From contig DASQIK010000027.1 of assembly GCA_035631615.1 (NCBI GenBank), forward strand, positions 63,446-127,445: a stretch of DNA of 64,000 bases, written 5' to 3'. Of this stretch, positions 10,770 to 31,306 are shown piece after piece. The stretch's first letter is position 1, and every line of letters begins with the position of its first letter. Source of the DNA: Candidatus Dormiibacterota bacterium (GTDB taxonomy: Bacteria > Chloroflexota > Limnocylindria > Limnocylindrales > CSP1-4). Made by a program: the position numbers and the translations under genes. The notes beneath the pieces are model-generated. The model saw nothing but the letters and a program-made list of their open reading frames with translations. It was not told where the DNA came from and made no database searches.

Positions 10770-12248
10770 TTGGCCATTGATCGACATTCGGGCGCCCGTC
10801 TGCTCCTCCTCGTGCTGTCGGTGGCAGGCCTCGCCGGTCTCGCCCTCGCTGCGCGACCACGCAAGGATTCCGTGCCGGTTCTCACCCCGCTCCCGTCCAT
10901 CTCGGTGCCTGCGCCTGCAGCGAGCGATCTATTCGTCTCAACGTCGGGGCACGACGGGTCGGCCGGCTCAGCCTCCGATCCCCTTGCATCCCTCCAGGCC
11001 GCGGTCGATCGCGTCGCGCCTGGAAGCACCGTGTGGGTAGAGCCCGGCAGGTACCAGGGCTTCGGGCTCCGTCGCGGCGGTCTCTCGGGCGCGCCCATCA
11101 CCATCGCGGCCACGACCCCGGGGACCGCCGTCATCACGCCCTTCGGTGTCGACTCCACGATCGACCTCGTCGGCGCTTCACACGTCGATCTGATCAACCT
11201 CGTCGTCGAGGGGCCGACATCCGGAATGCTGAGCGCCGTCTACCTCGAACGGAGCAGCGCGATCACGATCGAGGGCTGCACCCTCCGGGGGACGACCGGC
11301 GGTTTCGGCGTCCAGGTCCGCTTCTCGTCGGACGTGACCATCCGCGACAACGACATCCTCCACAACGCGATGGGAGTGCGCCTGTATGGCGAGGGTGACC
11401 CGAGTTCCGTGCATGACGTCCTGATCGAGGACAACTGGATCCACGACAGCGATTCGATGGTCGTGAACGATGCTGCTCCGAACAACGACTACGGCGCAAA
11501 TGGGATCGTCTGGCACAAGGTCACCGGGACCACTATCGCCCGCGGGAACAAGCTCTGGGCGAACCGCGCGGTGAGCCACGACTACGGATACGACGGCGGT
11601 GCCTTCGAGATCTGGGGCTCGAGCAACGCCCAGATCGTCAGCAACGTCGCCTGGGACAACGAAAACGTGATGGAGACCGGGTCGGATGGGCCGGACTGCA
11701 CGAACATCTCGTTTCTCAGAAACGTGGCGTACGCGCCCAGCTTCGGCGTCGGCCTGATCCTTCGGTGTGCCCGTGACTCGCTCATCGCAAACAACGTCCT
11801 CGACCACCTTCAGTCGTACGCGTTCGAACTCAGTGATCGCTCTGGTGGAAATCAGTTCGCGACATCGATCGACGGCCTCAGGATCGAGAACAACATCGTG
11901 GTCGGATCGCTCGCGTACGCCATTCGCAACGCCCTCCCGGCGACCGTCGTCCTCGACTACAACGTCCTACCGCCTCGACGGGCCATCGCGTCGTTCCCGA
12001 ACGGTGTGGTCAGCGTCTCGGTCGCGGCGTTCACGCGCGCCACTGGCCAGGATTCCCACTCGATCGCGGTCGATCCGGCATTCGTGGCCGCCTCCGCGCA
12101 CGACTACCGGCTTCGGCCCGGATCGCCGGCGATCGACCGCGGCACCGTGGTGATCCCGGGAGAAACGTTCCTCGGTGCCGCGCCGGACATCGGGGCCTAC
12201 GAGGGCGCCGCTGCGCTCCCCTCTCCGTCGCCCGCCGGATCCGGCTGA
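10770..12248 (+). CDS. secreted right-handed parallel beta-helix repeat protein (pectate-lyase/NosD-like fold)
   Basis: TTG start after RBS GAGAAGGA; signal peptide 'ARLLLLVLSVAGLAGLALAA'. Repeated 'VxIxDNxIxxN' beta-helix turns ('VTIRDNDILHN', 'VLIEDNWIHDS', 'LRIENNIVVGS'). Confidence 0.65.
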   Translation: MAIDRHSGARLLLLVLSVAGLAGLALAARPRKDSVPVLTPLPSISVPAPAASDLFVSTSGHDGSAGSASDPLASLQAAVDRVAPGSTVWVEPGRYQGFGLRRGGLSGAPITIAATTPGTAVITPFGVDSTIDLVGASHVDLINLVVEGPTSGMLSAVYLERSSAITIEGCTLRGTTGGFGVQVRFSSDVTIRDNDILHNAMGVRLYGEGDPSSVHDVLIEDNWIHDSDSMVVNDAAPNNDYGANGIVWHKVTGTTIARGNKLWANRAVSHDYGYDGGAFEIWGSSNAQIVSNVAWDNENVMETGSDGPDCTNISFLRNVAYAPSFGVGLILRCARDSLIANNVLDHLQSYAFELSDRSGGNQFATSIDGLRIENNIVVGSLAYAIRNALPATVVLDYNVLPPRRAIASFPNGVVSVSVAAFTRATGQDSHSIAVDPAFVAASAHDYRLRPGSPAIDRGTVVIPGETFLGAAPDIGAYEGAAALPSPSPAGSG

Positions 12249-13483
12249 CGCAGGCGTCCGACGGCGCGAGCCGCAAGGGTCCGGATCGTCTGCACGACCA
12301 TGCGGGCGGCGGGCCTTGGGTCATCGCGCGCGACCCACGCTCGCTCCTCGACGCCCCGGAGGCTCGAGAGGTAGCCGCGAAGCCCGAGCTCTCCGCGCCA
12401 AGCGAGCTTGATGGAGGTCGCGAGATCCTGGTCCTCCACCAGCCAGCGCCGGCCTTCGGGAGCGCGGCCGCCGGGCACGGACTGACCGGTCAGGTCCAGG
12501 TACAGCGCCCGCACGACATCGAGGCCGTTCCGCGCGACGAACAGCCGGAATGAGCTGCCGATGCGCGGATTGACGTCGAGCAACTTGTAGCGGCCGTCGC
12601 GCGCGTCGTACCGGAAGCCGAGGTCGACCATGCCGCGGTAGCCGAGATCACCGAGAAACCGCACCGCGAGCTCACGGACCACCTCGTTGCTCACCACCAC
12701 GCCGAGCGTCGTCGCGCCGGTGCGTGGCGGCGCCTGGCGGATCTTCTGGCCGACGATTCCGATCGGGCTCGCACCATTCCGATCGAAGTAGCCGTTGAAC
12801 ATCCAGATGGAGCGCGCATCGCCGGGGATGAACTCCTGAAGCATGAGATTCGGCTCGCCGGGGTCTTCGATGCGGTCGTACAGCTCGATCGCCTCGTTCC
12901 GGGTGTGGGCGACGGCCACGCTCACCGCCCGGGGGCGGCGCCGCAGGATTCGCGGATCCATGCTCTTCAGGACGATCGGGTAGCCGAGCTCCTCGGCGCC
13001 GGCCAGCATCTCGTCGCGTGAGGTCGGAAACCGCGCCGCCGGCGTTGGGATGCCGGCCCGCAGGCACAGGTTGTGCAGGCGGCCTTTGTCGCTGAGCTCG
13101 AGCGGCAGGCCAGCGGGCTGATCCGGGAGCAGGAACTCCCGTGGCAGCTGGGCGAAGTTGTCGGCCACGAACAGGGCGGCCACGTCGTCAGCGGCAATCA
13201 GCAGCGCTCGCGTGCCGATCCGGGCGGCGACGCGCCGGAGCAGCTCAAGGATCGCCACGTCCCCGGCCTCCGGCGGCGGCATCCCCGTCCGGCTTGCCAC
13301 GTACCGGCTGCGGGCGGGCGGAGCGTCCGGGTCTCGCGTCGCCAAGTGCACGCGAACCCCGAGCCGGCCAAGCGAGCGGGCGATCGCGAGCGTGCCGTGC
13401 TGGAAGGGGTCGCTGGTGAGCTTGAACACGGCGACCGGCGTACCGGCATCGACGAGTGGGCTGGTGAGACGAGCGTCGATCAA
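12197..13483 (-). CDS. ATP-grasp domain ligase
   Basis: Pre-ATP-grasp 'AVFKLTSDPFQHGTLAIARSLGRLGVRVHLA', then 'YPIVLKSMDPRI...LMLQEFIPG...' and 'YRGMVDLGFRYDARDGRYKLLDVNPRIGSSF' (ATP-grasp C-terminal motif). TTG start 2 nt after the comB stop. Confidence 0.7.
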   Translation of the reverse strand: MIDARLTSPLVDAGTPVAVFKLTSDPFQHGTLAIARSLGRLGVRVHLATRDPDAPPARSRYVASRTGMPPPEAGDVAILELLRRVAARIGTRALLIAADDVAALFVADNFAQLPREFLLPDQPAGLPLELSDKGRLHNLCLRAGIPTPAARFPTSRDEMLAGAEELGYPIVLKSMDPRILRRRPRAVSVAVAHTRNEAIELYDRIEDPGEPNLMLQEFIPGDARSIWMFNGYFDRNGASPIGIVGQKIRQAPPRTGATTLGVVVSNEVVRELAVRFLGDLGYRGMVDLGFRYDARDGRYKLLDVNPRIGSSFRLFVARNGLDVVRALYLDLTGQSVPGGRAPEGRRWLVEDQDLATSIKLAWRGELGLRGYLSSLRGVEERAWVARDDPRPAARMVVQTIRTLAARAVGRLRQPDPAGDGEGSAAAPS

Positions 13484-13485
13484 GT

Positions 13486-14205
13486 TCAGCTGGTGGCGCC
13501 CGTGCGCACGACCACCTCGCTGTTGCGCATCTCATAGGTGGTCGTGACGTCGGTCACGTGCTCGAGGATGAACGACAGGTCGTCGAGCTGCCCGGAGTCG
13601 CGCAGGTAGCGCGCGCTCTTGCCCTCCGTGATCGCGGCTGCCGGCGCGTCGCGCCAGGTGTCCACCACTCGGCGCGTCTCGTCATCGGCGTCATAGCCGG
13701 CGTCGATGAGCGGGCCGGCGATCCAGGCGCAGCAGAGCTGGTCCTCCTCGCGGAACTCGCCGCGTGTGCCGGCGCCGAGGAGCACGACCTCCGGGGGTCG
13801 GGCTCGCACGAGTTCCGCGGCCTGCGCCTCCCAGTTCCGCAGGCAGGCAAGGAACGTCGTCGGATGGGCCGCCGCCGCGGTCCGGAGGAGGCGCGTCCCC
13901 GAAGTCGACAGGAGAATCGCCGGGCGACTCGGGTCGCCGGCGCGAGCGATCGCCGCGGGGCTGTTGTTCAGGTCGAAGCCGTAGGGCATGTTCCCGCCGA
14001 GCTCCCCGACCAGCAGCGGGTGCTCGAGGCGAGCCTGGAGCTCTGCGACCTCGTCCAGGTTCGCGGCCACGAAGCACCGACGCCCACCCGCGACCGCGGT
14101 GATCGCCGTGGTCGTGGAGCGGATGACGTCGACGCCGACCACGACCGCGTCACGCGCGTAGCCGCGGAGCTCCGCGAGGTAGACCTCGATCCTGACGGAC
14201 GGCAT
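13486..14205 (-). CDS. comB: 2-phosphosulfolactate phosphatase (ComB family)
   Basis: 'VVVGVDVIRSTTTAITAVAGG' matches the ComB signature (VIDVLRAS/TT). Length 239 aa; sits 3 nt downstream of comA. Confidence 0.75.
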   Translation of the reverse strand: MPSVRIEVYLAELRGYARDAVVVGVDVIRSTTTAITAVAGGRRCFVAANLDEVAELQARLEHPLLVGELGGNMPYGFDLNNSPAAIARAGDPSRPAILLSTSGTRLLRTAAAAHPTTFLACLRNWEAQAAELVRARPPEVVLLGAGTRGEFREEDQLCCAWIAGPLIDAGYDADDETRRVVDTWRDAPAAAITEGKSARYLRDSGQLDDLSFILEHVTDVTTTYEMRNSEVVVRTGATS

Positions 14206-14208
14206 CCC

Positions 14209-15024
14209 TCAGGCGTCGCTCGGGCTGGGGGCAGGCGGCCGCAGGTTCGCGTGGCCGAACGCATCCGAGTGCAGCCCGCGCCGGTAGATCTCCACCCGCA
14301 GGAGCTCCTCGAGGCGCACGTTGCACAGCCGCACCTCCGGACCGAAGTGATTGAGCAGCGCGAACTGGCTGGGCTTGTTCGGGGCCTCGAACATCGTGAT
14401 CCCGAACCCGAACGCCTCGACGAAGCGCTCGGCCAGCGCCGTGTTGAGGTTGCCGTCCATGTCGAACAAGCCGACGCCCTTTGCGCTCTCGCGCGCCTCC
14501 ACGACCAGCTCCTTCGCGCCCGCATCCAACCAGCGTCTGCCCTGCTCGACCAGCTCCTCGGCGACGTCGTTTGTGAACGCGCCGCCGTGCTTCTTGCCGA
14601 GCTCGAACTGGAAGTCGAGGCCACGCGCCGCGGCCAGATGCGCCACCGTCTCGGGTGCGAGCCGCATGTCAGTGAAGCCCTCGCCACACTCGAACCTGTC
14701 GAACCCGATCTCGGCGCAGAGGTCCAGATATGCCTCGAGCTGGCCCTGTGCGACGGCCACCTCGAAGGGGCCACCACCGGTGACGGTGGGCACGCCGTGC
14801 TTCTTTGCCGCCGCGACTTTCGCCCGGGTTGCGCCCTCGTCAGCAATGATCCAGCACGCCATCGAGACCTTCAGGATCGAGATCAGGTGGTGGCTCTGCG
14901 CCAGATGGGATTCGAGGGTGACCGGGTCATAGCCCGGGTCGAACGGGCTTGTCGATGGCTCGAGGCTGCGCACGCCGATCGCGCGCAGGTAGCTGGCGAG
15001 GTAGCCATGGGCATCAGCCGTCAT
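14209..15024 (-). CDS. comA: (2R)-phospho-3-sulfolactate synthase (ComA family)
   Basis: 'AKELVVEARESAKGVGLFDMDGNLN...GITMFEAPNKPSQFALLNHFGPEVRLCNVRLEELLRVEIYRRGLHSDAFG' aligns with M. jannaschii ComA 'ADYVIIEGRESGKGIGLFDKEGKV...[48 protein letters not shown]'. Confidence 0.8.
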   Translation of the reverse strand: MTADAHGYLASYLRAIGVRSLEPSTSPFDPGYDPVTLESHLAQSHHLISILKVSMACWIIADEGATRAKVAAAKKHGVPTVTGGGPFEVAVAQGQLEAYLDLCAEIGFDRFECGEGFTDMRLAPETVAHLAAARGLDFQFELGKKHGGAFTNDVAEELVEQGRRWLDAGAKELVVEARESAKGVGLFDMDGNLNTALAERFVEAFGFGITMFEAPNKPSQFALLNHFGPEVRLCNVRLEELLRVEIYRRGLHSDAFGHANLRPPAPSPSDA

Positions 15025-16310
15025 TCCTCCCGTCCCTCCTGAACCCGCGGGCGTCGAGCCTGGATCTGTGGCCGAATGATTTCACGGTAGATGACCGGCA
15101 GCATCGGCAGCACCTCGAGGCCCATCGCGACTGCCACGCCGATCCCGAGGCCGCGGAGGCCGCCGGCGGTCGCGCCGAGGTATCCGCCGAGGATCTCGAT
15201 CAGGGCCCCAAGCGCAACGAGTCGAGTCGCGGACGAGAGGTGGCCTCGAACGCGCTGGATGGTGATGTACTGGCCCTTGAATACGCCGCCGATGACGGTC
15301 AGCGGCAGGGCGAAGAGGGCTTCCGTGCCCGCGTCCGAGTAGCCGCGTCCGAAGATTCGGAGGACGATCGGCCCGAGGATCCACAGCGCCACGGCACTGC
15401 CGACGCCGGTCACGATCGAGAGCCGGAGCGTCAGCCAGCCCCACCTGGCAAGGGATCCGGGCTCGCGCGACGCTTCCGCAAACAGGATCCACGTGAATGC
15501 CACCTGGACGAAGGCGGCGATGCCGACGAGCTGCCACGCCAGGAAGAAGCCGGCATTCGAGCTGGCCGAGAGCGCGGTGACTGCCACGATCGGCATCGCC
15601 CAGCCCGGAACCTGGATCGCGAGGTTCAGCATGTGATGCTGCAGCGACGCGAGCCACTGCTGGCCGAGAAACTCCCAGTGGAACGGGTAGGCGGCTCGCA
15701 GGTTGCCACGACGCCCCGCGATCAGGGCGAGGACGACGAGCGAGAGCCCCGTCGAGATCACCCACGGGGCGATCATGCCGAGCCCGGCCGAGGCGAGCGC
15801 GAACGACGCAAACATTGCGAGCAACAGGAGGCGCAGCAGGGCCGCGAGCACGTTCCGGAAGAGTTGCAGCCCACTGCGCAGGAGACCGATCAGCGCCTGG
15901 TCGAGGACGAGACTGGCGGCAGTCACGCTCGCGCCGAGGGTCACGAGGACGATGGTGATGAGCGACTCGCGAAGCGGCGCGAAGTCCACCGACAGCAGCG
16001 GCGCGATCAGGACGAATCCCAGGCCCAGGACCCCGCCGACGGCGGCCGAAGCGACGAGCGACGTCGTGACGATCGCGATCTCGCGCCCCGGATGTGCCGG
16101 AATCTCACGGATGAGCAGCGTGCCCAGGCCCATCGCCCCGACCGCACCGACCAGCGACATGCCCGAGGTGACGGCGGACGCGAAGCCGACATCGGACTGG
16201 CTGAAGGTCCGACTCGCGATCAACCAGAAGACGAACCCGACGCCAGCCGTGAGCAGCTGGCTGAGGACCAGCGACGTGCTCGATGCGAGAAAGTCACGGA
16301 CCCGCGGCAT
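15021..16310 (-). CDS. polysaccharide biosynthesis protein, Wzx-like flippase (MOP superfamily)
   Basis: 429 aa polytopic membrane protein from Met 'MPRVRDFLASS...'; the ORF-finder N-terminal extension was rejected. Its stop overlaps the comA ATG (ATGA). Confidence 0.7.
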   Translation of the reverse strand: MPRVRDFLASSTSLVLSQLLTAGVGFVFWLIASRTFSQSDVGFASAVTSGMSLVGAVGAMGLGTLLIREIPAHPGREIAIVTTSLVASAAVGGVLGLGFVLIAPLLSVDFAPLRESLITIVLVTLGASVTAASLVLDQALIGLLRSGLQLFRNVLAALLRLLLLAMFASFALASAGLGMIAPWVISTGLSLVVLALIAGRRGNLRAAYPFHWEFLGQQWLASLQHHMLNLAIQVPGWAMPIVAVTALSASSNAGFFLAWQLVGIAAFVQVAFTWILFAEASREPGSLARWGWLTLRLSIVTGVGSAVALWILGPIVLRIFGRGYSDAGTEALFALPLTVIGGVFKGQYITIQRVRGHLSSATRLVALGALIEILGGYLGATAGGLRGLGIGVAVAMGLEVLPMLPVIYREIIRPQIQARRPRVQEGREE

Positions 16311-17074
16311 CAGGCGCTCCCTGTGCCGGTCGAGTACGTGACCCGCCGGTACACGACGTCCGGCTGCGAGGCGACGTAGACGAGGACCTCGAGTGGCGGT
16401 CCGCCCCGGGCTGGCTGGGGCACGAGCGTGGTCCATCGCTCCCCCATCGCGACCGTGATCGCAGGGAACGACCTCTGGATGATACCGCCGACGGTCACGT
16501 CCACCCGGTACGTCGTCGTCGCGAGCTCCTGGTTGTCGAGACCGATCTTGACCATCCCCGACCCTGCCGGTACGACCCACAGGGCCGAGAACGGCTCCGA
16601 CGGCTGCTTGACACCGGCGCGTGCGATGAGCAGCGAGACCATCATCAGGACGCATGCGGCGACCATCGCAAGCGCCTGCCCGTTCGTCGGCCTGACCCAC
16701 GACTCGCGACGGAGCGGCGGCAGACCGCGACGGGCAAACACGGCGATGGCCAGCAGGAGGACGGCGACGAGCCCGAGCCAGGCGGTCCGGCTGAGGCCGC
16801 CGGGGATCAGGTTGAGGACGAGCCCACCGATCGCGATGCAACCGAGGCTCAGCGCCGAAGCGACGAGGAACAGGTCCAACCGCCGCAGGGACTCGACCGG
16901 GCGGCGGGTGATCGCAAGGACGATCCCCGGGAGAATCAGCACGACCAGCGCCACGGAGGCCAGCACGAACGCGATGATCCCGGCGATCGACGCCGCGAGG
17001 ATCACGGCGAGTGCGACCGCGCCGGTCAGCGCCAGCACCACCAGCGCGGTGCCGGGGGGCGTTCTACCGAGCAC
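16310..17074 (-). CDS. membrane protein (DUF1616-like: N-terminal TM helices plus C-terminal beta-rich domain)
   Basis: Four predicted TM helices followed by a soluble ~90 aa domain. Its stop overlaps the flippase start (TGATG). Confidence 0.5.
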   Translation of the reverse strand: MLGRTPPGTALVVLALTGAVALAVILAASIAGIIAFVLASVALVVLILPGIVLAITRRPVESLRRLDLFLVASALSLGCIAIGGLVLNLIPGGLSRTAWLGLVAVLLLAIAVFARRGLPPLRRESWVRPTNGQALAMVAACVLMMVSLLIARAGVKQPSEPFSALWVVPAGSGMVKIGLDNQELATTTYRVDVTVGGIIQRSFPAITVAMGERWTTLVPQPARGGPPLEVLVYVASQPDVVYRRVTYSTGTGSA

Positions 17075-18980
17075 CGGCGAGCCGCCTCACGTCGTACAGC
17101 TGGATGTCGCCGCTGTCATAGATGCGATCGACCCGCGGGACGCTGTCCCACTTGGCAAGCACAGTCGCGAGGATCGGCGTGGCGTGCCGTCGCTCGAAGA
17201 TCTCGCCCTCCTCGTAGTAGAACGGCACCAGGGGGAGACTCGAAGCCAATCGACGGTCGATCAGGATGTAGTCGATGCGCGCCGCCTTGATTCGGGCGAT
17301 CTCGAGCGGCCCGACGACCGGCGATAGGAAGATCTGCCAGGTTTCGACGTGGCCCGATGTGTAGAAGACCACGTCGGCCTGCCCGTACGAACCCAACAGG
17401 AGCCGATTGACCCGATCCCCGGCAACCCGCCGATTCGGGCCAAGGACGGCAAGCGTCCAGCCGGCCGCGGCGATGCTCTCGTTGTCGATCGACCGCGAAT
17501 CCGCGCCGACGAGGTATGGCCCCGGGAACCTCGTGGCCGGCGCCGTGCCGATCACCGCGCCGCCAAGGATGGCGAGGCACACGATGGCCACGAACGCGCC
17601 CGTCCACACCTGTTGCGACCGGGCCGGCGAGCCACGGATGGTCCACCGAACCGGATCGCGGGTGCCGCGGACGCGCCCCGCGATCGTCTCGGCCGTTGCG
17701 ATCACGCCGAGCGCGACGACGAACGAGAGCCCGAGGAACACGAAGCCGAGGCTTCGTCCGGCGGCCTCGCTGCCCGTAGGCGTGAGTCGCGCGACCAGGC
17801 TCAGGGGATAGGCGAGGGCAAGCAGCCCGAGCAGCAGGGCGAGGGAGTTGTCTCGATACCGCCGGATGAGCGGTGCCAGGCCGATCGGGATCGCCAGGGT
17901 CAGGAGCGCCGCGGTCCCCAGGCCGACCGCCCGCTCCCACACCGGCGCCACCTGGCCCGTCGCCGAGACGAAGGGCGTGCGGCCAACGCCCGTCGTCACC
18001 AGCCGTATGGCCTCGTTGATGGCTGCGGCAATCGGTGGCGCAAGGTAGCCCACGACGACCGGGCCCGCAAACACCAGCCAGAGGGCGGTGGCGCTGAGCA
18101 TGAGGGCGGTCGAGAAGATGATCCCCCATCGTCGGTACCGATCTCTTCGATGCACGATCCGGTTGACGACGATCCAGCCGACCAGGAGGGCAGCCGCCCC
18201 GTAGGTCGACACATGGTGGGTGATCGCCAGCGTCGCCGAGCTCGCCGCCAGCGCTGCGGCAAGGAGGACTCCGCCTCCGCGCTGAGCGCGGATGGCCGTG
18301 ATCAGGAGCACGACCGGGACGAGGGGAAGCGCGAGTGTCTCGTAGGAAAAGCCCGAGTCGAAGAACGTGAAGTTCGGGTTGAGCATGTAGATGGCGGTCG
18401 CCAGTCCGGCGACGCGCTCGGACGACGATGCTTCCCGATACAGCGCGAACAGGCCGATCGCGAACAATATTCTCGCGAACGCGAGCACGACGGCTGCGGC
18501 CGTGAACGGATCGACCCCGCTGATCTGGACCACCGCCGCCGTGACGATCTCGAGGCCCGGGAAGACCGGGCTGACGGGGAGGAGCGGGTTCGGCGTAAAG
18601 AGGTGGCCGGTGCTCAGAATGTCGGTGATCGTGCGGAGGTGGAGCAGCGCGTCGTAGTTCGTGAAGCCGGCGGGCGAGCTGACGAAGTGCACGACCTCGA
18701 GCACGAGACCGAGCACGAGCACGAGACCGACACGCTCCGCGGTTCCGGGTGCCTTCGCAGTCAGGCGCACCGTGATCGGGGCAGCGATCAAGAGGAGCCC
18801 GATCCAGAACAGCGGCTCGGCGTACTGGAACCCGGCGCCGACGAGGGCGAAGGACGAGGAGACAGCGACCACGCCGGCCGCGGCGACCAGCGACAGCGCC
18901 GGAAGCCAGCCCCAGCCGCGCGCGCGGTACGCCGCGGGATCGGGGCGCCCGAGCGGCGAATTCGAGCGCAGGTCTACCAC
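17064..18980 (-). CDS. large polytopic membrane protein, putative GT-C-type glycosyltransferase
   Basis: 638 aa with at least 12 hydrophobic segments across the N-terminal ~450 aa and a ~170 aa C-terminal soluble domain, as in GT-C/oligosaccharyltransferase-like enzymes. Overlaps the downstream gene by 11 nt. Confidence 0.5.
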   Translation of the reverse strand: MVDLRSNSPLGRPDPAAYRARGWGWLPALSLVAAAGVVAVSSSFALVGAGFQYAEPLFWIGLLLIAAPITVRLTAKAPGTAERVGLVLVLGLVLEVVHFVSSPAGFTNYDALLHLRTITDILSTGHLFTPNPLLPVSPVFPGLEIVTAAVVQISGVDPFTAAAVVLAFARILFAIGLFALYREASSSERVAGLATAIYMLNPNFTFFDSGFSYETLALPLVPVVLLITAIRAQRGGGVLLAAALAASSATLAITHHVSTYGAAALLVGWIVVNRIVHRRDRYRRWGIIFSTALMLSATALWLVFAGPVVVGYLAPPIAAAINEAIRLVTTGVGRTPFVSATGQVAPVWERAVGLGTAALLTLAIPIGLAPLIRRYRDNSLALLLGLLALAYPLSLVARLTPTGSEAAGRSLGFVFLGLSFVVALGVIATAETIAGRVRGTRDPVRWTIRGSPARSQQVWTGAFVAIVCLAILGGAVIGTAPATRFPGPYLVGADSRSIDNESIAAAGWTLAVLGPNRRVAGDRVNRLLLGSYGQADVVFYTSGHVETWQIFLSPVVGPLEIARIKAARIDYILIDRRLASSLPLVPFYYEEGEIFERRHATPILATVLAKWDSVPRVDRIYDSGDIQLYDVRRLAGAR

Positions 18981-19507
18981 AGTCGTCGTTCTCCGCGAGT
19001 GCCGGCTCGTCCGTCGACGCTGTGACCTCGGACGGAGATCAGTGGGCCTCGCGCGCGTCCAGCCCGGAGGCTCGGTTACCCGGCTCGAAAGACTCCTGCG
19101 TCGGGTTCATGCTCGCGGCGGATGATAGCAAGGGGGCAATCCGACACGCCGGGTCAGTGGTCGGGTAGGCCTATCCCGTGCGATCGCTCGCGGCCCGGGC
19201 CCCCGCGGGGGGAGTCTCGAGTCGCGCGCTGATCGACCTGGGCAGCGTCACGGGCCGACGCCGGCGTTGATCCGTCGAGTCCCCGAACATACTTCGGTAG
19301 GCCGACGGATAGCCAACGCGCCGGGCGACTCGGTAGAGCTCCGTGGCGTCCTCGATCGAACAGGCGATCTGCTTCGCCAATCGCTCGATGTTCGCGCGGT
19401 CGCCGGACAGGAACGCCGCAGGATGTCTGATGGCTTCAACGAGCGAGGACGACCGAGGAAGACGCACGCGACTCTCCCGAGGCTGACCGACCGCGACCGA
19501 TGTTCGA

Positions 19508-20722
19508 ATGAACGTACACCCGGACGGGAACGCGTCGACCTCCCGATATGACTATTGGCGTTCAGACGAAGGTGCGGGCCGGCGCGGTGAAGGGCGACTG
19601 CCGGCGCTCGCCACTCGTGCCATCCGTACACTCGACCTCGTGCTCATCTCGATACTCTCGGCCCAGCGGACCGCGATGCGCGCGCTCCGCCTGCTCGGCG
19701 ACTGGGCAGGATGGTCGAAGGAGACGTACCTCTACCAGCGGGTGAACGAGTACCGTCTGATCTGGGAGCGCGTCGCCATGGCGGAGGGAGGCACGTTCAC
19801 GGAGCTCGCGTCGGACCTCTGGCAGATCGACGTCGGGCACCATCGAGTCCGTGTCCTGAACTACCAGCTTGAATTCGACAATCCTGTGACCCTTGGCCTT
19901 GCGGGTCGCAAGCGGATCGTCCACGGTCTCCTGGGTGCAGCCGGCGTGTCCGTGCCCGAACATCTCGCGTTCACCCTGGAGACGATGGATGCCGCGCGAG
20001 ACTTCGTGGCGAACCATCCGCTTGGGTGCGTCATCAAACCATCCGGTGGATACGGTGGCAGGGGGGTCACCACACATGTCCAGCTGCCCGGCGAGGTCCG
20101 GTCTGCATCCCTGCGGGCGTCGGTCCACGATCCGGAGCTCCTCGTCGAGGCGATGATCCCCGGTGAATCGTTCCGCCTGCTCGTCCTCGAGGGCAAGGTG
20201 GTCGACGCCGTCTACCGGCGCGGGTCGCGCCTGACGGGCGACGGCGTGTCGACGATTCGGGAGCTGCTCGGCGCCGAAACCCCGGTGGACGGGCGCCGAC
20301 GCGATCCCGGGCTCGACGACGACCGGGACGTGAGCTTTACCCTGGTCGCACAGGGCCTCACCCTCGAATCCCGGCTCGACGCAGGCCGGGTCGTGCTGTA
20401 CCGGAGCACTGACCAGGCTCGGAAGCGCTACGCCGAGGTGCGGACCGTGTACACGGATTCGGCGCGGGATCTGATCTGCGAGTCGATCCGGTCCGACGCC
20501 GAGGCTGCCGCCCGTGTGATCGGGTCCGACTTCCTCGGCGTTGACGTCATCACGCTGGATCCCTCGGTCCCGCTCAGTGAGAGTGGCGGTGTGATCAACG
20601 AGGTGAACACCACGCCGGCGTTGCACCACCACTACGACATGACGCGCGAGCCGTATCCCGAGGCAGCCGTGCTCGCCATCGAGGCCCTCCTGAGGCGGCC
20701 TTCCGCCCTCGTCGATTCGTGA
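19508..20722 (+). CDS. ATP-grasp domain protein (cyanophycin-synthetase/RimK-like ligase)
   Basis: 'CVIKPSGGYGGRGVTTHV' (ATP-grasp Gly-rich loop), 'LLVEAMIPGESFRLLVLEGKVV', and 'GVDVITLDPSVPLSESGGVINEVNTTPAL'. The leader has locally lower GC. Confidence 0.6.
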   Translation: MNVHPDGNASTSRYDYWRSDEGAGRRGEGRLPALATRAIRTLDLVLISILSAQRTAMRALRLLGDWAGWSKETYLYQRVNEYRLIWERVAMAEGGTFTELASDLWQIDVGHHRVRVLNYQLEFDNPVTLGLAGRKRIVHGLLGAAGVSVPEHLAFTLETMDAARDFVANHPLGCVIKPSGGYGGRGVTTHVQLPGEVRSASLRASVHDPELLVEAMIPGESFRLLVLEGKVVDAVYRRGSRLTGDGVSTIRELLGAETPVDGRRRDPGLDDDRDVSFTLVAQGLTLESRLDAGRVVLYRSTDQARKRYAEVRTVYTDSARDLICESIRSDAEAAARVIGSDFLGVDVITLDPSVPLSESGGVINEVNTTPALHHHYDMTREPYPEAAVLAIEALLRRPSALVDS

Positions 20723-20729
20723 GATTCTG

Positions 20730-21908
20730 ATGCGCCCTGAACGAGCGGCGATTGCACCGCACCGCCTACGCGTCGCAGCTGTCGGCGACGTGATGCTGGG
20801 CCGTGAGGTGGGCGTCCATTTCGCATTGTCGCCCGGCGACTTTGCGATGCCGGATATCCGGGCGGCCTTCGCCGGAGCAGACGTCGTGCTGGCCAATCTC
20901 GAGAACCCGGTTGCGAGCACTGGCCGACCCGACCCGGCGCAGGACCCGCACGTCACGTTTCGGGCGGCACCCGAGACCCTGTCCGTGCTCAAGGGGATCG
21001 GCGTGAACGTCGTGGCGCTGGGCAACAACCACATGCTCGACTACGGCGAGGCAGCCCTCATCGAGACGCTCGAGCGGCTGGACGCCGCCGGCATCCGGCA
21101 TGTTGGGGCCGGCCGCGACTACGAAGAGGCGAACGCCCCGGTGCTCCTTGAAGTTCGCGGCCGAAGGATCGCGATCCTTTCCTATGCGTTCATCTACTCC
21201 GCGAACACACGAATGGCTTCACGGACGAGGTCGGGCATCAGCGATCATCGCCTCGACCGGATCCTGCGGCGCATCAGAGGCCTGGTTGCCGAGGGTTGCT
21301 GCGTCCTCGTCACGGCGCACTGGGGGTTCGAATACCGGTTCCATCCACTGCCGTACCAGATGCGCCAGGCACGCGCGATGATCGACGCCGGCGCACGTAT
21401 CGTGCTCGGACACGGGCCCCATATCCCGCAGGGCATCGAAGCGTACAGGGGACGGGACATCGTCTACAGCCTGGGGAACTTCATCTTCGACGAGCCGTAT
21501 ACGTACGCGAAGCGGAGCTTCATCTACCACGCGGAGATCGACGATGACGGGGCGACCATGAACCGACGGATGACGCCGGTCCTGCTCCCGCACCATGTCC
21601 CGTCCCTGATGGCGCACGACGACGCTGAGCGCATGCGGGCGCTCGTCGAAGCACTCAGTCGACGGTACGGGCGAAGGAGCAGTGCGTTCTGGCGGGACCA
21701 CAGCACGCGCTATCTCAACGAGCTCGGCGGACGTGTCGTGCGCAACCGATCGCTCAAGTACCTTCGGGTGCCGCCGATGGGGTTCTACCGGGACGTCGGG
21801 GCGACGGGCATCCTACGCATCGTGCAACGAGCGGTGACGGTTCTGCGACCTGGTGGAACACGTCGGGAATCAGGTGGCTCTCGCCGGCGACCGGAGGGAA
21901 TCTCGTGA
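20730..21908 (+). CDS. CapA/PgsA family protein (poly-gamma-glutamate synthesis-associated metallophosphoesterase fold, PGA_cap)
   Basis: 'LRVAAVGDVMLGREV...VVLANLENP...GVNVVALGNNHMLDYG...ILSYAF...VTAHWGFEY' matches the CapA family pattern. Confidence 0.75.
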   Translation: MRPERAAIAPHRLRVAAVGDVMLGREVGVHFALSPGDFAMPDIRAAFAGADVVLANLENPVASTGRPDPAQDPHVTFRAAPETLSVLKGIGVNVVALGNNHMLDYGEAALIETLERLDAAGIRHVGAGRDYEEANAPVLLEVRGRRIAILSYAFIYSANTRMASRTRSGISDHRLDRILRRIRGLVAEGCCVLVTAHWGFEYRFHPLPYQMRQARAMIDAGARIVLGHGPHIPQGIEAYRGRDIVYSLGNFIFDEPYTYAKRSFIYHAEIDDDGATMNRRMTPVLLPHHVPSLMAHDDAERMRALVEALSRRYGRRSSAFWRDHSTRYLNELGGRVVRNRSLKYLRVPPMGFYRDVGATGILRIVQRAVTVLRPGGTRRESGGSRRRPEGIS

Positions 21909-22987
21909 CCCGGCAAGGCAGCGTGCTGTCGGCCTGGCTACGGGCCACGCGGCACGTGCCCGCGACCTCGATGGCGCGGTTCGCCCGGCCGCAGCCACCC
22001 CGTTTCCCGGCGATCGACGCCCACACGCACCTGAACTCCGTGCACGCCTACGGCTGGCGGGGTCGACCCGTCGGCGACGTGATCCGGGCACTCGATCGCG
22101 CGGGCGTTCAAGGCCTCGTGAACCTCGACGGCGGTCACGGCGAGGCCCTGTCAGCGGAGATCGCCCGAGTCCAGACGCCGAATCCGGATCGGATCGTGGT
22201 CTTCGCCGGGGTCGACCCGGCCGCCTGGAAGCACGACGCACGCTTTGGCGCGATGGAGGCGGCACGTCTCGAGGACTCGGTTCGTCGCGGCGCGAGGGGG
22301 CTGAAGATCTGGAAGGACGTCGGCCTCCATGCGCGCGATCCCGACGGCCGCCTCGTCGCGCTCGATGACGAGCGTCTCGCGCCGATCTGGGAGACCGCGG
22401 GCGCCCTGGGCGTCCCGGTCCTCATTCACGTCGCCGACCCGAAGGCGTTCTTCGAGCGCCTGGACCGCAACAACGAGCGCTGGGACGAGCTGCGCCGCCA
22501 CCCGGATTGGCATTACTCCCCGATCCGGACGGCGCCGGATGGTCCCGGCTTCCCCAGCCACGACGAGCTGATCGGCCAGTTCGAGCGGATGGTGCAGCGC
22601 CACCCCGGGACGAGGTTCATCGGCGCCCACCTGGCCTCGAGCGGCGAGGATCTCGCCCGCTTGTCGGACATGCTCCGGAGGCTGCCAAACCTGTCGGTCG
22701 ACATCGCGGCGCGAATCAATGAGCTCGGGCGACAGCCCGCGGAGGCGAGGTCGTTCATCGAGACGTTCCAGGATCGCGTCCTGCTCGGCACGGACGCGGG
22801 GCCAGATCCGCGCTGGTATCCGATCTACTTCCGGTTCCTCGAAACCGCCGCGCACGACATGAACTACTCCGTCGGCTACCGCGCACCCCAGGGCAACTGG
22901 CGGATCGACGGGTTGAGCCTGTCCGACCGCGCGCTCGTGAAGGTGTATGCCGAAAACGCCTTGCGACTGATCCGATTCGGCCCGTAG
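21905..22987 (+). CDS. amidohydrolase family (TIM-barrel metal-dependent hydrolase, amidohydrolase_2-like)
   Basis: 'FPAIDAHTHL' metal-binding HxH near the N-terminus, plus 'VLIHVADP' and 'GTDAGPD'. GTG at 21905 overlaps the CapA stop; the alternative ATG at 21971 is more likely. Confidence 0.7.
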   Translation: MTRQGSVLSAWLRATRHVPATSMARFARPQPPRFPAIDAHTHLNSVHAYGWRGRPVGDVIRALDRAGVQGLVNLDGGHGEALSAEIARVQTPNPDRIVVFAGVDPAAWKHDARFGAMEAARLEDSVRRGARGLKIWKDVGLHARDPDGRLVALDDERLAPIWETAGALGVPVLIHVADPKAFFERLDRNNERWDELRRHPDWHYSPIRTAPDGPGFPSHDELIGQFERMVQRHPGTRFIGAHLASSGEDLARLSDMLRRLPNLSVDIAARINELGRQPAEARSFIETFQDRVLLGTDAGPDPRWYPIYFRFLETAAHDMNYSVGYRAPQGNWRIDGLSLSDRALVKVYAENALRLIRFGP

Positions 22988-24094
22988 GTGACGGCCACAT
23001 CGCGCCCAAGGCTGCTCTTCGTCAGCGCGCGATTCACGCCCGATGTCGGCGGCATCGAGACGCACGTCGCCGAGGTGGCGCCGCGCCTCGTCGAGATGGG
23101 CTTCGACGTCACGATCCTGACCACGGACCGGACCGGCACGCGAGCGTCAAGCGAGAAGACCAACGGGGTCGAGGTCGTCCGCGTCCCGGCATACCCGAGG
23201 TCGCGCGACTACTACCTCGCCCCGGCGCTGGTGGGCGAGATCCGACGCCACCCGTCCGACCTCATGCACCTGCAGGGCTACCACACCCTGGTGGCGCCCA
23301 TCGCGATGGCCGCCGCAGGGTCGCGCGGGCTCCCGTATGTCGTGTCGTTCCACAGCGGCGGACATCCCTCGAAGCTGCGCAACCGGGCCCGGGCGCTCCA
23401 GCGCCTCCTCCTCCGACCGGGCCTTGTCAGAGCCGACCGTCTGATCGCCGTATCCCGCTTCGAGCTGGACCTCTTTCGGCGGGATCTCCGGCTGTCTGCA
23501 TCACGGTTCAAGCTCATCAGGAACGGGAGCTCGCTGCCGGCCCCGCTGACGACGCGGCGCCCCGGCGCCGGACTGGTCGTATCGATCGGGCGGCTGGAGC
23601 GATACAAGGGCCACCGGCGCGTCGTCGAGGCATGGGGCGCCGTGCTCCGTGAGGTGCCACACGCGCGCCTGCGGATCATCGGCAGCGGGCCCGACGAGGG
23701 TCCCATCCGCGCGCTGATCAGGTCGTCAGGGATGGAGGATCGGATCACGCTGGAGTCGATTCCCGGGGATGATCGCCAGGCGATCGCGGACGCGCTGGGC
23801 GAGGCGAACCTGGTCGTGCTCTTGAGCGACTACGAGGCCCATCCGGTCGCGGTCATGGAGGCGCTCGCGGTCGCGACCCCCGTGCTCGTCGCTCGCACCA
23901 GCGGACTCACGGAGCTCGTCGAGGACGGCCTCGCGGCGGGCATCGATCCGTCGGCGTCGATGGCCCAGGTCGCAGCCGGCGTCGTCGCGGAGCTTCGCCG
24001 GCCGCGCGTGGTCGCGACACCCCTGCCGACGTGGGACGACTGTGCCGTCCAGCTGCGCGACCTCTATCACGAGATCCTCGAGGGCCGGCGGTGA
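22988..24094 (+). CDS. glycosyltransferase family 4 (GT-B fold)
   Basis: 'LLFVSARFTPDVGGIETHVAEV', with C-terminal 'VLLSDYEAHPVAVMEALAVATPVLV' (EX7E-like). Confidence 0.75.
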   Translation: MTATSRPRLLFVSARFTPDVGGIETHVAEVAPRLVEMGFDVTILTTDRTGTRASSEKTNGVEVVRVPAYPRSRDYYLAPALVGEIRRHPSDLMHLQGYHTLVAPIAMAAAGSRGLPYVVSFHSGGHPSKLRNRARALQRLLLRPGLVRADRLIAVSRFELDLFRRDLRLSASRFKLIRNGSSLPAPLTTRRPGAGLVVSIGRLERYKGHRRVVEAWGAVLREVPHARLRIIGSGPDEGPIRALIRSSGMEDRITLESIPGDDRQAIADALGEANLVVLLSDYEAHPVAVMEALAVATPVLVARTSGLTELVEDGLAAGIDPSASMAQVAAGVVAELRRPRVVATPLPTWDDCAVQLRDLYHEILEGRR

Positions 24095-25638: not shown

Positions 25639-25841
25639 AACGGTTCCGGGAGCATCGCACCCGGTTGCATTGATCGATTCGCCCGTCGCCGACGCACTGA
25701 ACGTGCGTCACCACGATCGCATGTGCCCGCAGTCGCAGTTCGTTTCGGCGACCCTGGAGGTGCGGGCATCTCAACCCAGCGCGGACTCTGAGGAAGCAAT
25801 CCATTGGCACTGAATCTCGAAAATAATAAGGAAGCGTCAGG

Positions 25842-26685
25842 AGTGCGATCGGCCGGCCGCCGTCACCACGCCGTGGCGCCCGAGCATCGCATCCGGGACC
25901 GCGCCCTCGTCGAGTCGACCGCATCCTCCGGGGGCGACCACGCCGACGCCGGCCGCGTCGCGGTCGGGATCAGCGTGGTGATCCCCGCCCGGAACGAGGC
26001 CGACAACATCGCATGGGTCCTGCGCCGTATCCCGAGCTATGTCGACGAGGTCGTGATCGTCGACGGGAGGTCCACCGACGCCACGATCGCCGTGGCCCGG
26101 ATGGTCCGCCCCGACGTCGTTGTCGTGACCGACAACGGCCTCGGCAAGGGCGACGCGATGCGCGTCGGCGCCAAGATGGCTCGCGGCTCGATCGTCGTGA
26201 TGATGGACGCCGACGGGAGCATGGACCCAGCCGAGATCGAGCGGTTCGTGGAGCCCCTGGCCCAGGACTTCGATTTCGTGAAAGGTTCGCGCTTCCTCGC
26301 AGGCGGCGGAACGAGCGATATGACGACCCTGCGAAAGGCCGGGCACTGGGCCCTGCTGACCCTCGCCAACGTGATGTACGGCAGCCGGTGGTCTGACCTG
26401 TGCTACGGGTTCTGCGCCTTCCGCCGGTCCGCCCTCGACGAGCTGGCGCTCGATGCGGACGGGTTCGAGATCGAGACCCAGATGGTTGTCCGCTCGGCGC
26501 GCATCCAGCTGCGAATCACCGAGGTGCCGAGCTATGAGTATCCCCGTAGGTTCGGGAACTCGCAGCTGAACACGTTTCGTGACGGCTGGCGCGTCCTGTG
26601 CACGATCTTCCAGGAGCGGGTGAAGCGTCACCCCGTGGCGGCCATCGACGAACCAGGGATGGCGGACGAGCTCATCGATGCCTGA
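25842..26685 (+). CDS. glycosyltransferase family 2 (polyprenyl-phosphate sugar synthase-like)
   Basis: 'ISVVIPARNEADNI...VVIVDGRSTDAT...VMMDADGSMDP' (GT2 DxD). An AT-rich 'AAAATAATAAGGAAG' RBS region lies upstream; exact start (GTG 25842 or downstream) is uncertain. Confidence 0.7.
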
Positions 26686-27670
26686 GGCTCACCTTGTGAG
26701 CACAGCAGCTGCGATCCCCAGCAGCGTTTCGGTCGTCGTCTGCACCCACACCGTCGCGCGACGGCAGATCCTCGGGCACCTCATCGACTCGATCGCGGCC
26801 GGGACTGTCAAGCCCGTCGAAGTGGTGGTGGTCGTCGACCGCAATCGACCGCTCTTCGAGGCCCTGACCGCAGCGACCTGGCCGCTGTCGCTCCGTGTGA
26901 TCGAGAGCCGCGGGAGCGGTCTCTCGGCCGCCCGGAACGCCGGCTGGCAGACGGTGACCTCGCCACTCGTGGCGTTCATCGATGACGACGCGGTCGCGAC
27001 GCCCGGCTGGCTCGCGGAGCTGACCAACGCCGCGGATCGCCATGGTGCTGACGTCGTCGGTGGCGCCATCGAACCGCTGTGGAACGGCGACGCGCCGGGC
27101 TGGTACAGCCGATACCTCGGCTGGGTGGTCGGGTGCAGCTACGAGGGACTGCCCCGCGAGGCAGCACGCGTACGCAACGTGATCGGCTGCAACATGCTCT
27201 TCCGGCGCGAGCTCCTCGATCGGCTCGAAGGGTTCGACACCACCCTCGGCCGAACCAACAACGGACTCGCTGGTTGCGAGGAGACCGAGCTGTGCATCCG
27301 CGCGAATCGCGCCGGAGCCGCCGTGGTGCTGATCCCCGGGGCGCAGGTCTCGCAGGTCCTGCCGGCGGACCGCCGGCGCTTCCGTTACGCGGTGCGGCGC
27401 GGCTGGGACGAAGGCCGGTCGAAGCGGATGCTCGTTGCCATGCATGGACGGGTACTCGCCACCGAATCGAGCTATGCGCGAGCGCTCCTCCGCCAGGCCC
27501 TCGTCTGGGTCGGCACGGGAATCGTCGGGCGCCATGCATCGGACATCCGGCGCGCGGCCGCCCTGATCGCAGTGCTCACCAGCACGACGGCCTCATACCT
27601 CCTTCACGGGCTGCGCCGACCGACCCCGCGCGTCGTCGCACGGCCGCCCGTCACCGCGATCAACGGGTAA
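26678..27670 (+). CDS. glycosyltransferase family 2
   Basis: 'VSVVVCTHTVARRQ...VVVVVDRNRP...AFIDDDAVATPGWL' (GT2 DDD). Overlaps the upstream GT2 by 8 nt. Confidence 0.7.
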   Translation: MPEAHLVSTAAAIPSSVSVVVCTHTVARRQILGHLIDSIAAGTVKPVEVVVVVDRNRPLFEALTAATWPLSLRVIESRGSGLSAARNAGWQTVTSPLVAFIDDDAVATPGWLAELTNAADRHGADVVGGAIEPLWNGDAPGWYSRYLGWVVGCSYEGLPREAARVRNVIGCNMLFRRELLDRLEGFDTTLGRTNNGLAGCEETELCIRANRAGAAVVLIPGAQVSQVLPADRRRFRYAVRRGWDEGRSKRMLVAMHGRVLATESSYARALLRQALVWVGTGIVGRHASDIRRAAALIAVLTSTTASYLLHGLRRPTPRVVARPPVTAING

Positions 27671-29085: not shown

Positions 29086-29093
29086 GTGTTGAC

Positions 29094-31283: not shown

Positions 31284-31306
31284 AGCCCGTCGATGCAACG
31301 CCGCCC

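Follow-up and report, generated by a model that had tools for sequence, protein, structure and literature searches.

What does a protein of the PGA_cap family (CapA/PgsA) do when its gene directly follows that of an ATP-grasp ligase? This question is raised by a stretch of 64,000 nucleotides (nt) from a genome of Candidatus Dormiibacterota (contig DASQIK010000027.1; the whole stretch is hereafter termed the window), in which such a pair, here called AG2 and the CapA-like gene, lies beside genes for an amidohydrolase and for glycosyltransferases. The original prediction, made from the letters of the window, had considered a non-canonical amino-acid-polymer or aminoacylated-glycan pathway. Comparison of the locus with its relatives makes us lean, if only slightly, towards another answer: AG2 and the CapA-like protein would act as a ligase-epimerase pair and would form the downstream half of a cassette by which a glycan receives a substituent containing sulfolactate. 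AG2 has its strongest conserved partners in ComA, ComB and a second ATP-grasp ligase (AG1), which are encoded approximately 5 kb upstream on the other strand and were missed by the first reading. The cassette genes of the window are the following (aa, amino acids; ORF, open reading frame; PEP, phosphoenolpyruvate).

19640..20722, plus strand: AG2, stand-alone ATP-grasp ligase of 360 aa, related to the G domain of CphA; at its longest, the ORF reaches back to 19508
20730..21908, plus strand: CapA-like, soluble PGA_cap/calcineurin-fold protein of 392 aa, candidate MslH-type epimerase (Pfam PGA_cap, PF09587, 1.1e-67)
14209..15024, minus strand: ComA-like phosphosulfolactate synthase (PEP + sulfite; Pfam ComA, 3.8e-45)
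13486..14205, minus strand: ComB-like 2-phosphosulfolactate phosphatase (Pfam 2-ph_phosp, 1.4e-33)
12197..13483, minus strand: AG1, second ATP-grasp ligase, ORF of 428 aa (weak ATP-grasp Pfam matches)

The neighbourhoods of three distant homologues and of 79 loci from species-representative genomes were compared, and 31 loci were analysed in detail; the loci cover 10 kb on each side, and genes scored as absent may sit farther out. A word-indexed search of metagenomes yielded 304 matches to AG2 at E ≤ 1e-5, and an exhaustive search resulted in 223 clusters (50% identity) at E ≤ 1e-30, which include the sister cassette described below. We observed a recurrent cassette ComA-ComB-AG1-AG2 in Chloroflexota, Acidobacteriota, Nitrospira, Delta- and Gammaproteobacteria, Zixibacteria and others, nearly all of them metagenome-assembled genomes (MAGs). 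ComA, ComB and AG1 are located within 10 kb of AG2 in cassette loci of several phyla, and 28 of the 31 closely analysed loci possess a homologue of ComA or ComB. Within the cassette ComB always lies beside ComA, and AG1 homologues (35-45% identity) directly adjoin AG2 or ComB in nearly all loci. In the window, the cassette is divided between two divergent operons (12197-15024 on the minus strand and 19640-21908 on the plus strand).

The pairing of the ligase with a PGA_cap protein, on which the original prediction was built, is likewise conserved. The CapA-like gene is found directly 3′ of AG2 in 14 independent genome loci and in the window, and at least 18 of 36 AG2 homologues located on contigs of at least 10 kb share their contig with a close CapA-like homologue. 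This adjacency goes far beyond chance. The amidohydrolase and the two GT4 glycosyltransferases, which had been counted as part of the same unit, fared differently. Among the 79 genome loci, none contains a homologue of the amidohydrolase (0/79), and homologues of the GT4 genes beside AG2 were likewise not found there; the nearest relative, L085, is the only one in which the amidohydrolase and GT4/GT2 genes reappear, with their order unchanged. Their membership in a conserved unit was rejected on these grounds; as they are absent from the 79 loci and recur in L085 alone, they are best regarded as lineage-specific accessories.

The slot of the CapA-like gene can be filled by a second type of protein. 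The CapA-like gene is missing from about half of the cassettes, and in nine loci a LarA-like gene is present instead; the 14 loci and the window have the CapA-like gene, and no locus has both. The LarA-like protein matches Lar_N with 4.5e-42, and, among solved structures, comes closest to the malate racemase Mar2 (PDB 6d6z; 1.6e-37), a member of the lactate racemase family. LarA enzymes act as racemases on free 2-hydroxyacids; sulfolactate has malate as its carboxylate isostere. Although it holds the same slot, LarA is unrelated to the CapA-like protein in fold and cofactor (nickel-pincer), and it is not encoded in the window.

The exchange is visible at the level of the DNA in two Nitrospira loci, L010 and L069, whose flanking DNA is 85-92.5% identical. 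ComA, ComB and AG1 of the two loci are 95-99% identical, and the range is 92-99% when the FemAB-like protein and the third ATP-grasp protein are included. The 3.5-kb block AG2-Acyl_transf_3-CapA-like of L010 is replaced in L069 by the block Acyl_transf_3-LarA-like-AG2; no DNA similarity is detectable between the two blocks, whose AG2 proteins are only 51% identical. Because the block is replaced as a whole, the ligase and its epimerase have been exchanged as one unit.

In line with this exchange, the AG2 proteins carry the mark of their partner. All CapA-linked AG2 proteins (16/16) contain H95, a P-loop that is one residue shorter, ‘G(Y/F)-GG’, and the motif NTTPALHHH, whereas all LarA-linked AG2 proteins (9/9) contain Y95, ‘GT(S/G)(S/A)G’ and NTTPGLHHH. 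The AG2 of the window bears the CapA-linked signature (H95, GY-GG, NTTPALHHH). Among the other AG2 proteins, which derive from methyltransferase-only loci and from the sister cassette, the CapA-type signature is found in none and NTTPGLHHH in nearly all. Three alignment positions hence separate the CapA-linked AG2 proteins, and two of them sit in active-site motifs of the cyanophycin synthetase CphA1, where the elements equivalent to the P-loop and to NTTPxLHHH touch the carboxylate that is activated and, in the substrate that enters, the alpha-carboxylate (PMC9427784). Taken together, AG2 and the CapA-like gene constitute a real, co-evolving gene pair. Since the CapA-like gene is dispensable in about half of the cassettes and exchangeable with a LarA-type racemase, a role as an epimerase is favoured over a role in a capsule polymer. 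A candidate for a third epimerase fold, an MR_MLE gene beside AG2 in L003, was set aside; it encodes a sugar-acid-dehydratase-like member of the enolases (2poz, 2e-104), lies on the strand opposite to AG2 and probably has no connection with it.

Does the CapA-like protein itself resemble an epimerase? The assignment to PGA_cap in the original prediction was borne out by the profile match given above. The sole solved relative of the CapA-like protein in the PDB is MslH (8gq9), with 1e-18 by sequence, 6e-27 by profile and 23% identity. MslH acts on residues whose carboxylate is free and inverts their alpha-carbon. The AlphaFold 2 (AF2) model of the CapA-like protein (predicted local distance difference test, pLDDT, 87.7) likewise retrieved MslH in Foldseek (4e-23; template modelling score 0.68), and the next matches, at 1e-9, are 5′-nucleotidases and acid phosphatases. 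MslH epimerises the C-terminal Trp of a lasso peptide by means of the dyads His88/Asp91 and His295/Asp11, with Glu44 and Asn87 as ligands and His259/His261 as calcium ligands (PMC10406935). The MslH residues D11, E44, N87, H88, D91 and H295 correspond to D20, E58, N100, H101, D104 and H231 of the CapA-like protein, and all six are invariant across 15 members of the CapA-like subfamily. Both proteins are soluble and adopt the calcineurin fold. The central insertion of MslH, which harbours His259/His261, does not align with the CapA-like protein; moreover, lasso-peptide genes are absent from the window, and the score of the CapA-like protein against the NCBIfam model for MslH (NF038314) is far below the equivalog level (82.6 bits, cut-off 700).

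The CapA-like subfamily has an invariant HWGxE motif (H197, E201), which might or might not be the counterpart of His259/His261, and a conserved helical C-terminal extension of its own. The N-terminus, MRPERAAIAPHRLRVAAVGD, enters the first beta-strand at residue 13 and lacks a hydrophobic anchor, which also holds for the orthologues. The precedent for an epimerase among PGA_cap proteins is strengthened by pgsA of Bacillus subtilis, as the D/L ratio of poly-gamma-glutamate is 75/25 with pgsA and 5/95 without it (PMC6029982). Judged from these correspondences, the CapA-like protein plausibly works like MslH.

The same comparison leaves room for another function, in which the CapA-like protein is no epimerase and acts either as a metallophosphoesterase or hydrolase on a (pyro)phosphorylated intermediate, or as a non-catalytic partner of AG2. 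The calcineurin/metallophosphatase fold, with 5′-nucleotidases and acid phosphatases ranking next after MslH, speaks for this view, as does the fact that the metal-binding motifs are generic to the superfamily; moreover, covariation with the phosphate-binding P-loop of AG2 would fit a phosphorylated intermediate. We nevertheless consider it unlikely, albeit worth keeping in mind. Only one PGA_cap member has both a solved structure and a defined activity, and this is a single-metal epimerase (PMC10406935) whose dyads are kept in the CapA-like protein. Furthermore, what replaces the CapA-like gene in otherwise identical loci is a racemase homologue and no phosphatase, the cassette already possesses a dedicated phosphatase in ComB, and PgsA alters the stereochemistry of its polymer.

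We then turn to the chemistry of the ligase. AG2 gives only sub-threshold ATP-grasp matches in Pfam; its best NCBIfam match is cyanophycin synthetase (1.5e-36, model positions 183-453 of 871; 126 bits versus a cut-off of 877), followed by N-acetylglutaminylglutamine synthetase (5e-25) and GshAB. The search of PDB sequences led to CphA1 as well (2e-20), and the AF2 model (pLDDT 83) had TeCphA1 as its top match in Foldseek (3.6e-21); CphA1, CphA2 and GshF lie between 1e-21 and 1e-18, followed by D-Ala-D-Ala ligases, RimK and PsnB at about 1e-10. The active site was mapped with an HMMER alignment to 7txv, the residues of TeCphA1 being taken from PMC9427784. In TeCphA1, the activated carboxylate is bound by Arg309, whereas Arg323 binds the aspartate that enters, at its beta-carboxylate (PMC9427784). 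AG2 keeps both substrate arginines together with the nucleotide and Mg ligands K220, K261, D431, E450 and N452. By contrast, the residues with which CphA1 recognises its primer and aspartate are gone: Glu215 and His267 are each replaced by Gly, Asn394/Ser396 in the G-omega loop by Gln/Arg, with a 5-residue insertion and an invariant EVRTVY, and Arg458 by a His that lies inside the invariant family motif NTTP(A/G)LHHH.

Thus, AG2 shares with the G domain of CphA1/CphA2 (PDB 7lg5, 7wae, 7ta5) its best match in sequence and structure, the ATP/Mg ligands and the two arginines, whereas CphA comprises approximately 870-900 aa in three domains (N, G and M) and AG2 only the G domain, without the primer-anchoring N domain and the Mur-ligase-like M domain. 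Moreover, AG2 is tied to ComA/ComB and glycan genes, and CphA to nitrogen storage. As it is a single-domain protein whose recognition residues are gone, AG2 appears to be a ligase with CphA-type catalytic machinery that acts on other substrates, and not a cyanophycin synthetase. Its predicted chemistry follows that of CphA, i.e. a carboxylate would be converted to an acyl-phosphate, which would be attacked by an aspartate-like nucleophile.

Could AG2 nonetheless be an iterative poly-amino-acid polymerase of the cyanophycin or poly-glutamate type, the CapA-like protein taking the part of PgsA/CapA in elongation or export? Its closest characterised relatives are indeed the polymerising G domains of CphA1/CphA2, PGA_cap is the family of PgsA/CapA, and a flippase and membrane proteins are encoded nearby. 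The likeness to PgsBCA/CapBCA comprises the PGA_cap protein and the influence of PgsA on the D/L content of the product. However, neither PgsB (Mur-ligase type) nor PgsC was found among the genes annotated between 7.9 and 32.9 kb of the window or in the related annotated loci. The amide ligase is of the ATP-grasp and not of the Mur-ligase type, and the CapA-like protein lacks the N-terminal membrane anchor that PgsA/CapA of Bacillus possesses. The domains and recognition residues of CphA1 that are missing from the 360-aa AG2 speak against polymerisation, too, as does the replacement of the CapA-like protein, absent from half of the cassettes, by a cytoplasmic hydroxyacid racemase. Finally, the constant partners ComA/ComB would provide a hydroxy-sulfonate, that is, a hydroxyacid and neither glutamate nor any other amino acid. 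We therefore take the system of the window, judged by its genes between 7.9 and 32.9 kb, to be distinct from PgsBCA, and regard a poly-amino-acid polymerase as hardly probable. The original prediction was right in calling the locus non-canonical for poly-gamma-glutamate. Of the polymer pathway that it suggested, the peptide-bond-forming relatives of the ligase (the G domains of CphA1/CphA2, and GshF) and the setting in a glycan locus stand, and ComA/ComB redirect it to sulfolactate. A sulfolactate-incorporating glycan-modification cassette with an exchangeable epimerase is the better-supported picture when compared with a poly-amino-acid pathway.

The case for sulfolactate rests on the two Com proteins. 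From PEP and sulfite, the enzymes ComA and ComB produce (R)-sulfolactate. The ComA-like protein is a full-length match to ComA of M. jannaschii (1qwg, 6e-29; residues 27-258 versus 18-250) and keeps the GKK, ERES and FEAP motifs. The adjoining ComB-like gene, separated by a 3-nt gap in the window, matches NCBIfam models of the ComB family with up to 1.3e-21. Adjacent, full-length homologues of ComA and ComB are also what the cassette has in common with the sulfolactate branch of coenzyme M synthesis (YitD/YitC in B. subtilis); in contrast to that branch, ComC/ComDE and the later coenzyme M genes are absent here, and the products are predicted to feed ATP-grasp ligases. AG1 is of the ‘carbamoyl-phosphate-synthase-like’ or PylC-like type (PRK12767-type models, 4.6e-08).

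A possible course of the reactions, drawn from homology and gene neighbourhood, is as follows. The ComA-like protein would add sulfite to PEP, and the ComB-like protein would dephosphorylate the product to (R)-sulfolactate, an acidic 2-hydroxyacid isosteric to malate and aspartate. ATP-grasp enzymes convert a carboxylate into an acyl-phosphate, which is then coupled to an amine or a hydroxyl. AG1 and AG2 might couple sulfolactate via acyl-phosphates to one or two partners, candidates being amino acids, an amino or uronic sugar, or the 2-hydroxyl of the acid itself, as in D-Ala-D-Lac ligases. In AG2, sulfolactate may serve as the acyl donor, yielding an amide, or as the nucleophile through its 2-hydroxyl, yielding an ester. 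The stereocentre beside the free carboxylate would be inverted either before ligation by the LarA-like protein, acting on the free acid, or on the ligated intermediate by the CapA-like protein, which may act just before or just after AG2. With such a difference between the two routes of inversion, it would be understandable that either epimerase is accompanied by an AG2 allele of its own. The predicted product is a sulfonated, anionic substituent on a lipid-linked glycan, which would be flipped and polymerised outside the cell.

A variant of this scheme envisages AG2 as an ester-forming (depsi) ligase, with sulfolactate as an aspartate mimic that attacks through its 2-hydroxyl; AG1 and AG2 would perhaps form an iterative polymerase, and the CapA-like protein would epimerise the chain-terminal unit. 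The outcome would be a sulfonated polyester or polyamide on the lipid-linked glycan, a sulfonate analogue of cyanophycin or polymalate. We rate this variant as distinctly improbable.

Is the acceptor a glycan at all? Genes for a flippase, GT2/GT4 glycosyltransferases and Wzy surround the cassette in the window and in most loci of several phyla, and a conserved 466-aa GT4-like gene and O-acyltransferases often flank it; an orthologue of this GT4-like gene (cluster c7) was not found in the window at E < 1e-6. The remaining genes of the window around the cassette are listed below.

21905..22987, plus strand: Amidohydro_2 protein, translationally coupled to the CapA-like gene (Pfam, 8.5e-18)
22988-24094 and ~24103-25317, plus strand: two GT4 glycosyltransferases (Pfam Glyco_transf_4 / Glycos_transf_1)
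25804..27670, plus strand: two GT2 glycosyltransferases, AglJ-like and AglG-like (Pfam Glycos_transf_2)
15021..16310, start coordinate approximate, minus strand: Polysacc_synt (Wzx-type) flippase (Pfam, 1.1e-06 with a trimmed ORF)
16310-17074 and 17064-18980, minus strand: two DUF6541 membrane-protein ORFs at the head of the minus operon (Pfam, 6e-06 and 2e-05, both below cut-off)
18981..19639, no strand: divergent intergenic region; no conserved gene is called in the orthologous L085 locus

AG2 is the first gene of the plus-strand operon, followed by the CapA-like gene, the amidohydrolase, two GT4 and two GT2 genes. The GT2 pair consists of an AglJ-like polyprenyl-phosphate hexosyltransferase (NCBIfam AglJ, 1.5e-41) and an AglG-like glucuronosyltransferase (AglG, 3.9e-51), both below their equivalog cut-offs. 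The divergent minus-strand operon comprises two DUF6541 genes, the Polysacc_synt flippase, the ComA-like and ComB-like genes and AG1; the end of the flippase gene overlaps the start of the ComA-like gene on the same strand by 4 nt, and the flippase orthologue in L085 has 429 aa and contains PF01943. GH16-like and beta-helix proteins and a sugar epimerase/dehydratase are encoded at the edges. The whole locus is a surface-glycan locus. PADLOC returned no matches that would indicate a role in anti-phage defence. A similar general logic is known from Campylobacter jejuni Cj1438, an ATP-grasp amidoligase encoded in a polysaccharide locus, which decorates a capsular sugar with a small charged group via an amide bond (glucuronate plus serinol or ethanolamine phosphate).

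Alternatively, the cassette might produce a small soluble metabolite, for instance a sulfonated dipeptide-like solute or cofactor comparable to N-acetylglutaminylglutamine amide or bacillithiol; that it lies in glycan loci would then be incidental or only regulatory. The second-best and third-best families of AG2, N-acetylglutaminylglutamine synthetase and GshAB, are in keeping with such a product. The four-gene core has no glycosyltransferase of its own, in L086 an AsnB-type amidotransferase lies beside the ligases, and in the sister cassette a flippase is the only such gene noted near the pair (four loci), a glycosyltransferase being unseen in the one locus annotated. Set against this are the flippase, GT2/GT4, often Wzy, O-acyltransferase and 466-aa GT4-like genes that flank most loci across several phyla; moreover, in the window the flippase gene abuts the ComA-like gene, and AG2 leads the glycosyltransferase operon. 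We therefore hold a soluble product to be rather improbable.

The sister cassette bears on the nature of the substrate. It consists of an RraA-like aldolase, AG2′, AG1′ and Ldh_2, AG2′ being 30-35% identical to AG2, and occurs in approximately 45 loci, mostly of Gamma- and Alphaproteobacteria and Bacteroidota; one of its hosts, Afifella pfennigii DSM 17143, is in culture, and a TauD-like dioxygenase or a Polysacc_synt flippase sometimes accompanies it.

L049:7973-13207; L043, L052, L058, L062, L070, L083 and about 40 more loci: sister cassette

Ldh_2 is the malate/L-lactate dehydrogenase family, which includes sulfolactate dehydrogenase. The sister cassette thus joins the ligase pair to plausible suppliers of a 2-hydroxyacid, which supports such an acid as the substrate of the pair. 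It appears to be uncharacterised as well. Hybrids were observed in L047, L059 and L061 (MAGs of Thioalkalispiraceae/Thiohalomonadales), where ComA-ComB-AG1-methyltransferase lies 1.5-4 kb downstream of a type-B-like AG2, and neither a CapA-like nor a LarA-like gene is present.

Several observations weigh against a ligase-epimerase pair that incorporates sulfolactate into a glycan. Approximately seven cassettes (L018, L028, L029, L031, L047, L059, L061) contain neither a CapA-like nor a LarA-like gene; cassettes of this kind carry a methyltransferase beside the ligase genes. Six of the nine LarA loci form one clade, and the mutual exclusivity of CapA-like and LarA-like genes is in part a matter of phylogeny; the LarA-linked loci fall in at least three places of a neighbour-joining tree, which is a simple distance tree. 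In L007 and L086, AG2 and the CapA-like gene occur without ComA/ComB within 10 kb. The residues shared with MslH are kept across the whole PGA_cap family and therefore do not discriminate an epimerase from another activity, and His259/His261 of MslH could not be aligned to the CapA-like protein by sequence or by profile. The ComA-like protein scores 146 bits versus an equivalog cut-off of 280 (TIGR03849), and because of this score it might use a nucleophile other than sulfite; a gene for a sulfite source was not seen nearby. Lastly, it is the gene neighbourhood that suggests attachment to a glycan.

With respect to the gene calls, the ORFs 19508-20722, 20730-21908, 21905-22987, 22988-24094 and 24031-25317 were confirmed on the plus strand. 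All five show a coding-type bias, with a GC content of 0.79-0.88 at the third and approximately 0.5 at the second codon position in a background of 67-70% GC. AG2 is 100% identical to a deposited NCBI protein of 360 aa from a Candidatus Dormibacteraeota MAG. As the homologues begin at the same point as this protein, the true start of AG2 is most likely the GTG at 19640; the ATG at 19508 was rejected, the 44 additional residues being missing from the deposited protein and from all homologues. Read from the sequence, the ligase ends with its TGA at 20722 and the CapA-like gene starts with the ATG at 20730, so the spacer measures 7 nt and not 8 nt as first stated. The GTGA overlap that had been described between the CapA-like and amidohydrolase genes is present at 21905-21908. 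When the PDB was searched by sequence with the amidohydrolase, nothing meaningful was obtained, just two designed proteins over approximately 15 residues. The second GT4 gene probably starts with the ATG at 24103.

The intergenic region 18981-19639 presumably contains the promoters of both operons; a small reverse ORF within it (19171-19467) has no family match. The DUF6541-type membrane protein is split over two overlapping ORFs, and the split pair is also present in L085. Because this related contig has the identical split, it is probably genuine and no sequencing frameshift. GH16-like and right-handed beta-helix (NosD-like) proteins are encoded on both flanks, at 9241-10638 and 10770-12248 on the plus strand, 27660-29264 on the minus strand and 28971-30428 on the plus strand; cleavage or remodelling of the polymer may be their function. 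ORFs on opposite strands overlap between 27.7 and 30.4 kb, and the gene calls of this part are tentative. Directly downstream, at 30962-32878 on the plus strand, an adenylate/guanylate cyclase with a PAS domain (Guanylate_cyc, 5e-59) is encoded, which looks ordinary.

Additional genes accompany the cassette in individual lineages. In L086 (4241-11134) the order is AG1-AG2-CapA-like-methyltransferase, located beside the AsnB-type amidotransferase and a Wzy polymerase. Fusions of PGA_cap with an S-adenosylmethionine (SAM)-dependent methyltransferase, approximately 650 aa in length, are encoded in L011:11095-13047 and L033:11059-..., and such fusion proteins were also found as P0180, P0202, P0213, P0217, P0218, P0225 and P0236; in other loci a separate methyltransferase of 281 aa lies 3′ of the CapA-like gene. 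A B12-binding radical-SAM gene is located between ComA and ComB or near them in L001:4463-5848 (which equals the L011 locus), L033 and L031, which suggests an extra modification, perhaps C-methylation, of the sulfolactate-derived unit in some lineages. A recurrent neighbour module (L005:11046-17092, L086:12063-21134, L008, L009, L018, L028, L031) encodes the 466-aa GT4-like protein, a MaoC-dehydratase plus SDR, an Antibiotic_NAT-type N-acyltransferase, an acyl carrier protein, KAS III, an acyltransferase and an FkbH-like protein; this module may N-acylate an amino sugar of the same glycan. The Nitrospira loci (L014:12453-17455; L010, L015, L017, L069) add a FemAB-like transferase, the third, PylC-like ATP-grasp protein, a weakly AMP-binding-like protein and a squalene-cyclase/GH127-fold protein, which hints at a longer, peptide-like side chain.

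All parts of the cassette stem from known families, and their combination and the predicted product are undescribed in the searchable literature, where we found nothing relevant that joins sulfolactate or phosphosulfolactate synthase with ATP-grasp ligases, with LarA in a biosynthetic sense or with a glycosyltransferase. Annotation of the genes considered here as ‘cyanophycin synthetase’ or as ‘CapA family / poly-gamma-glutamate synthesis protein’ is misleading. The replacement of the CapA-like protein by LarA, together with the AG2 subtype private to it, offers a testable handle on the function of PGA_cap (CapA/PgsA) proteins, including their function in poly-gamma-glutamate synthesis, and if the depsi-ligase scheme held true, it would reveal the long-debated catalytic role of the PgsA/CapA family. 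The cassette is widespread over many phyla, among them Nitrospira, Acidobacteriota, Chloroflexota and Dormibacteraeota, and occurs almost solely in uncultured organisms. If our interpretation is correct, the surface glycans of these bacteria would carry a carbon-bonded sulfonate. This would be a new kind of anionic surface modification and, in soils, sediments and nitrifying biofilms, a sink for organosulfur derived from sulfite that has so far gone unrecognised.

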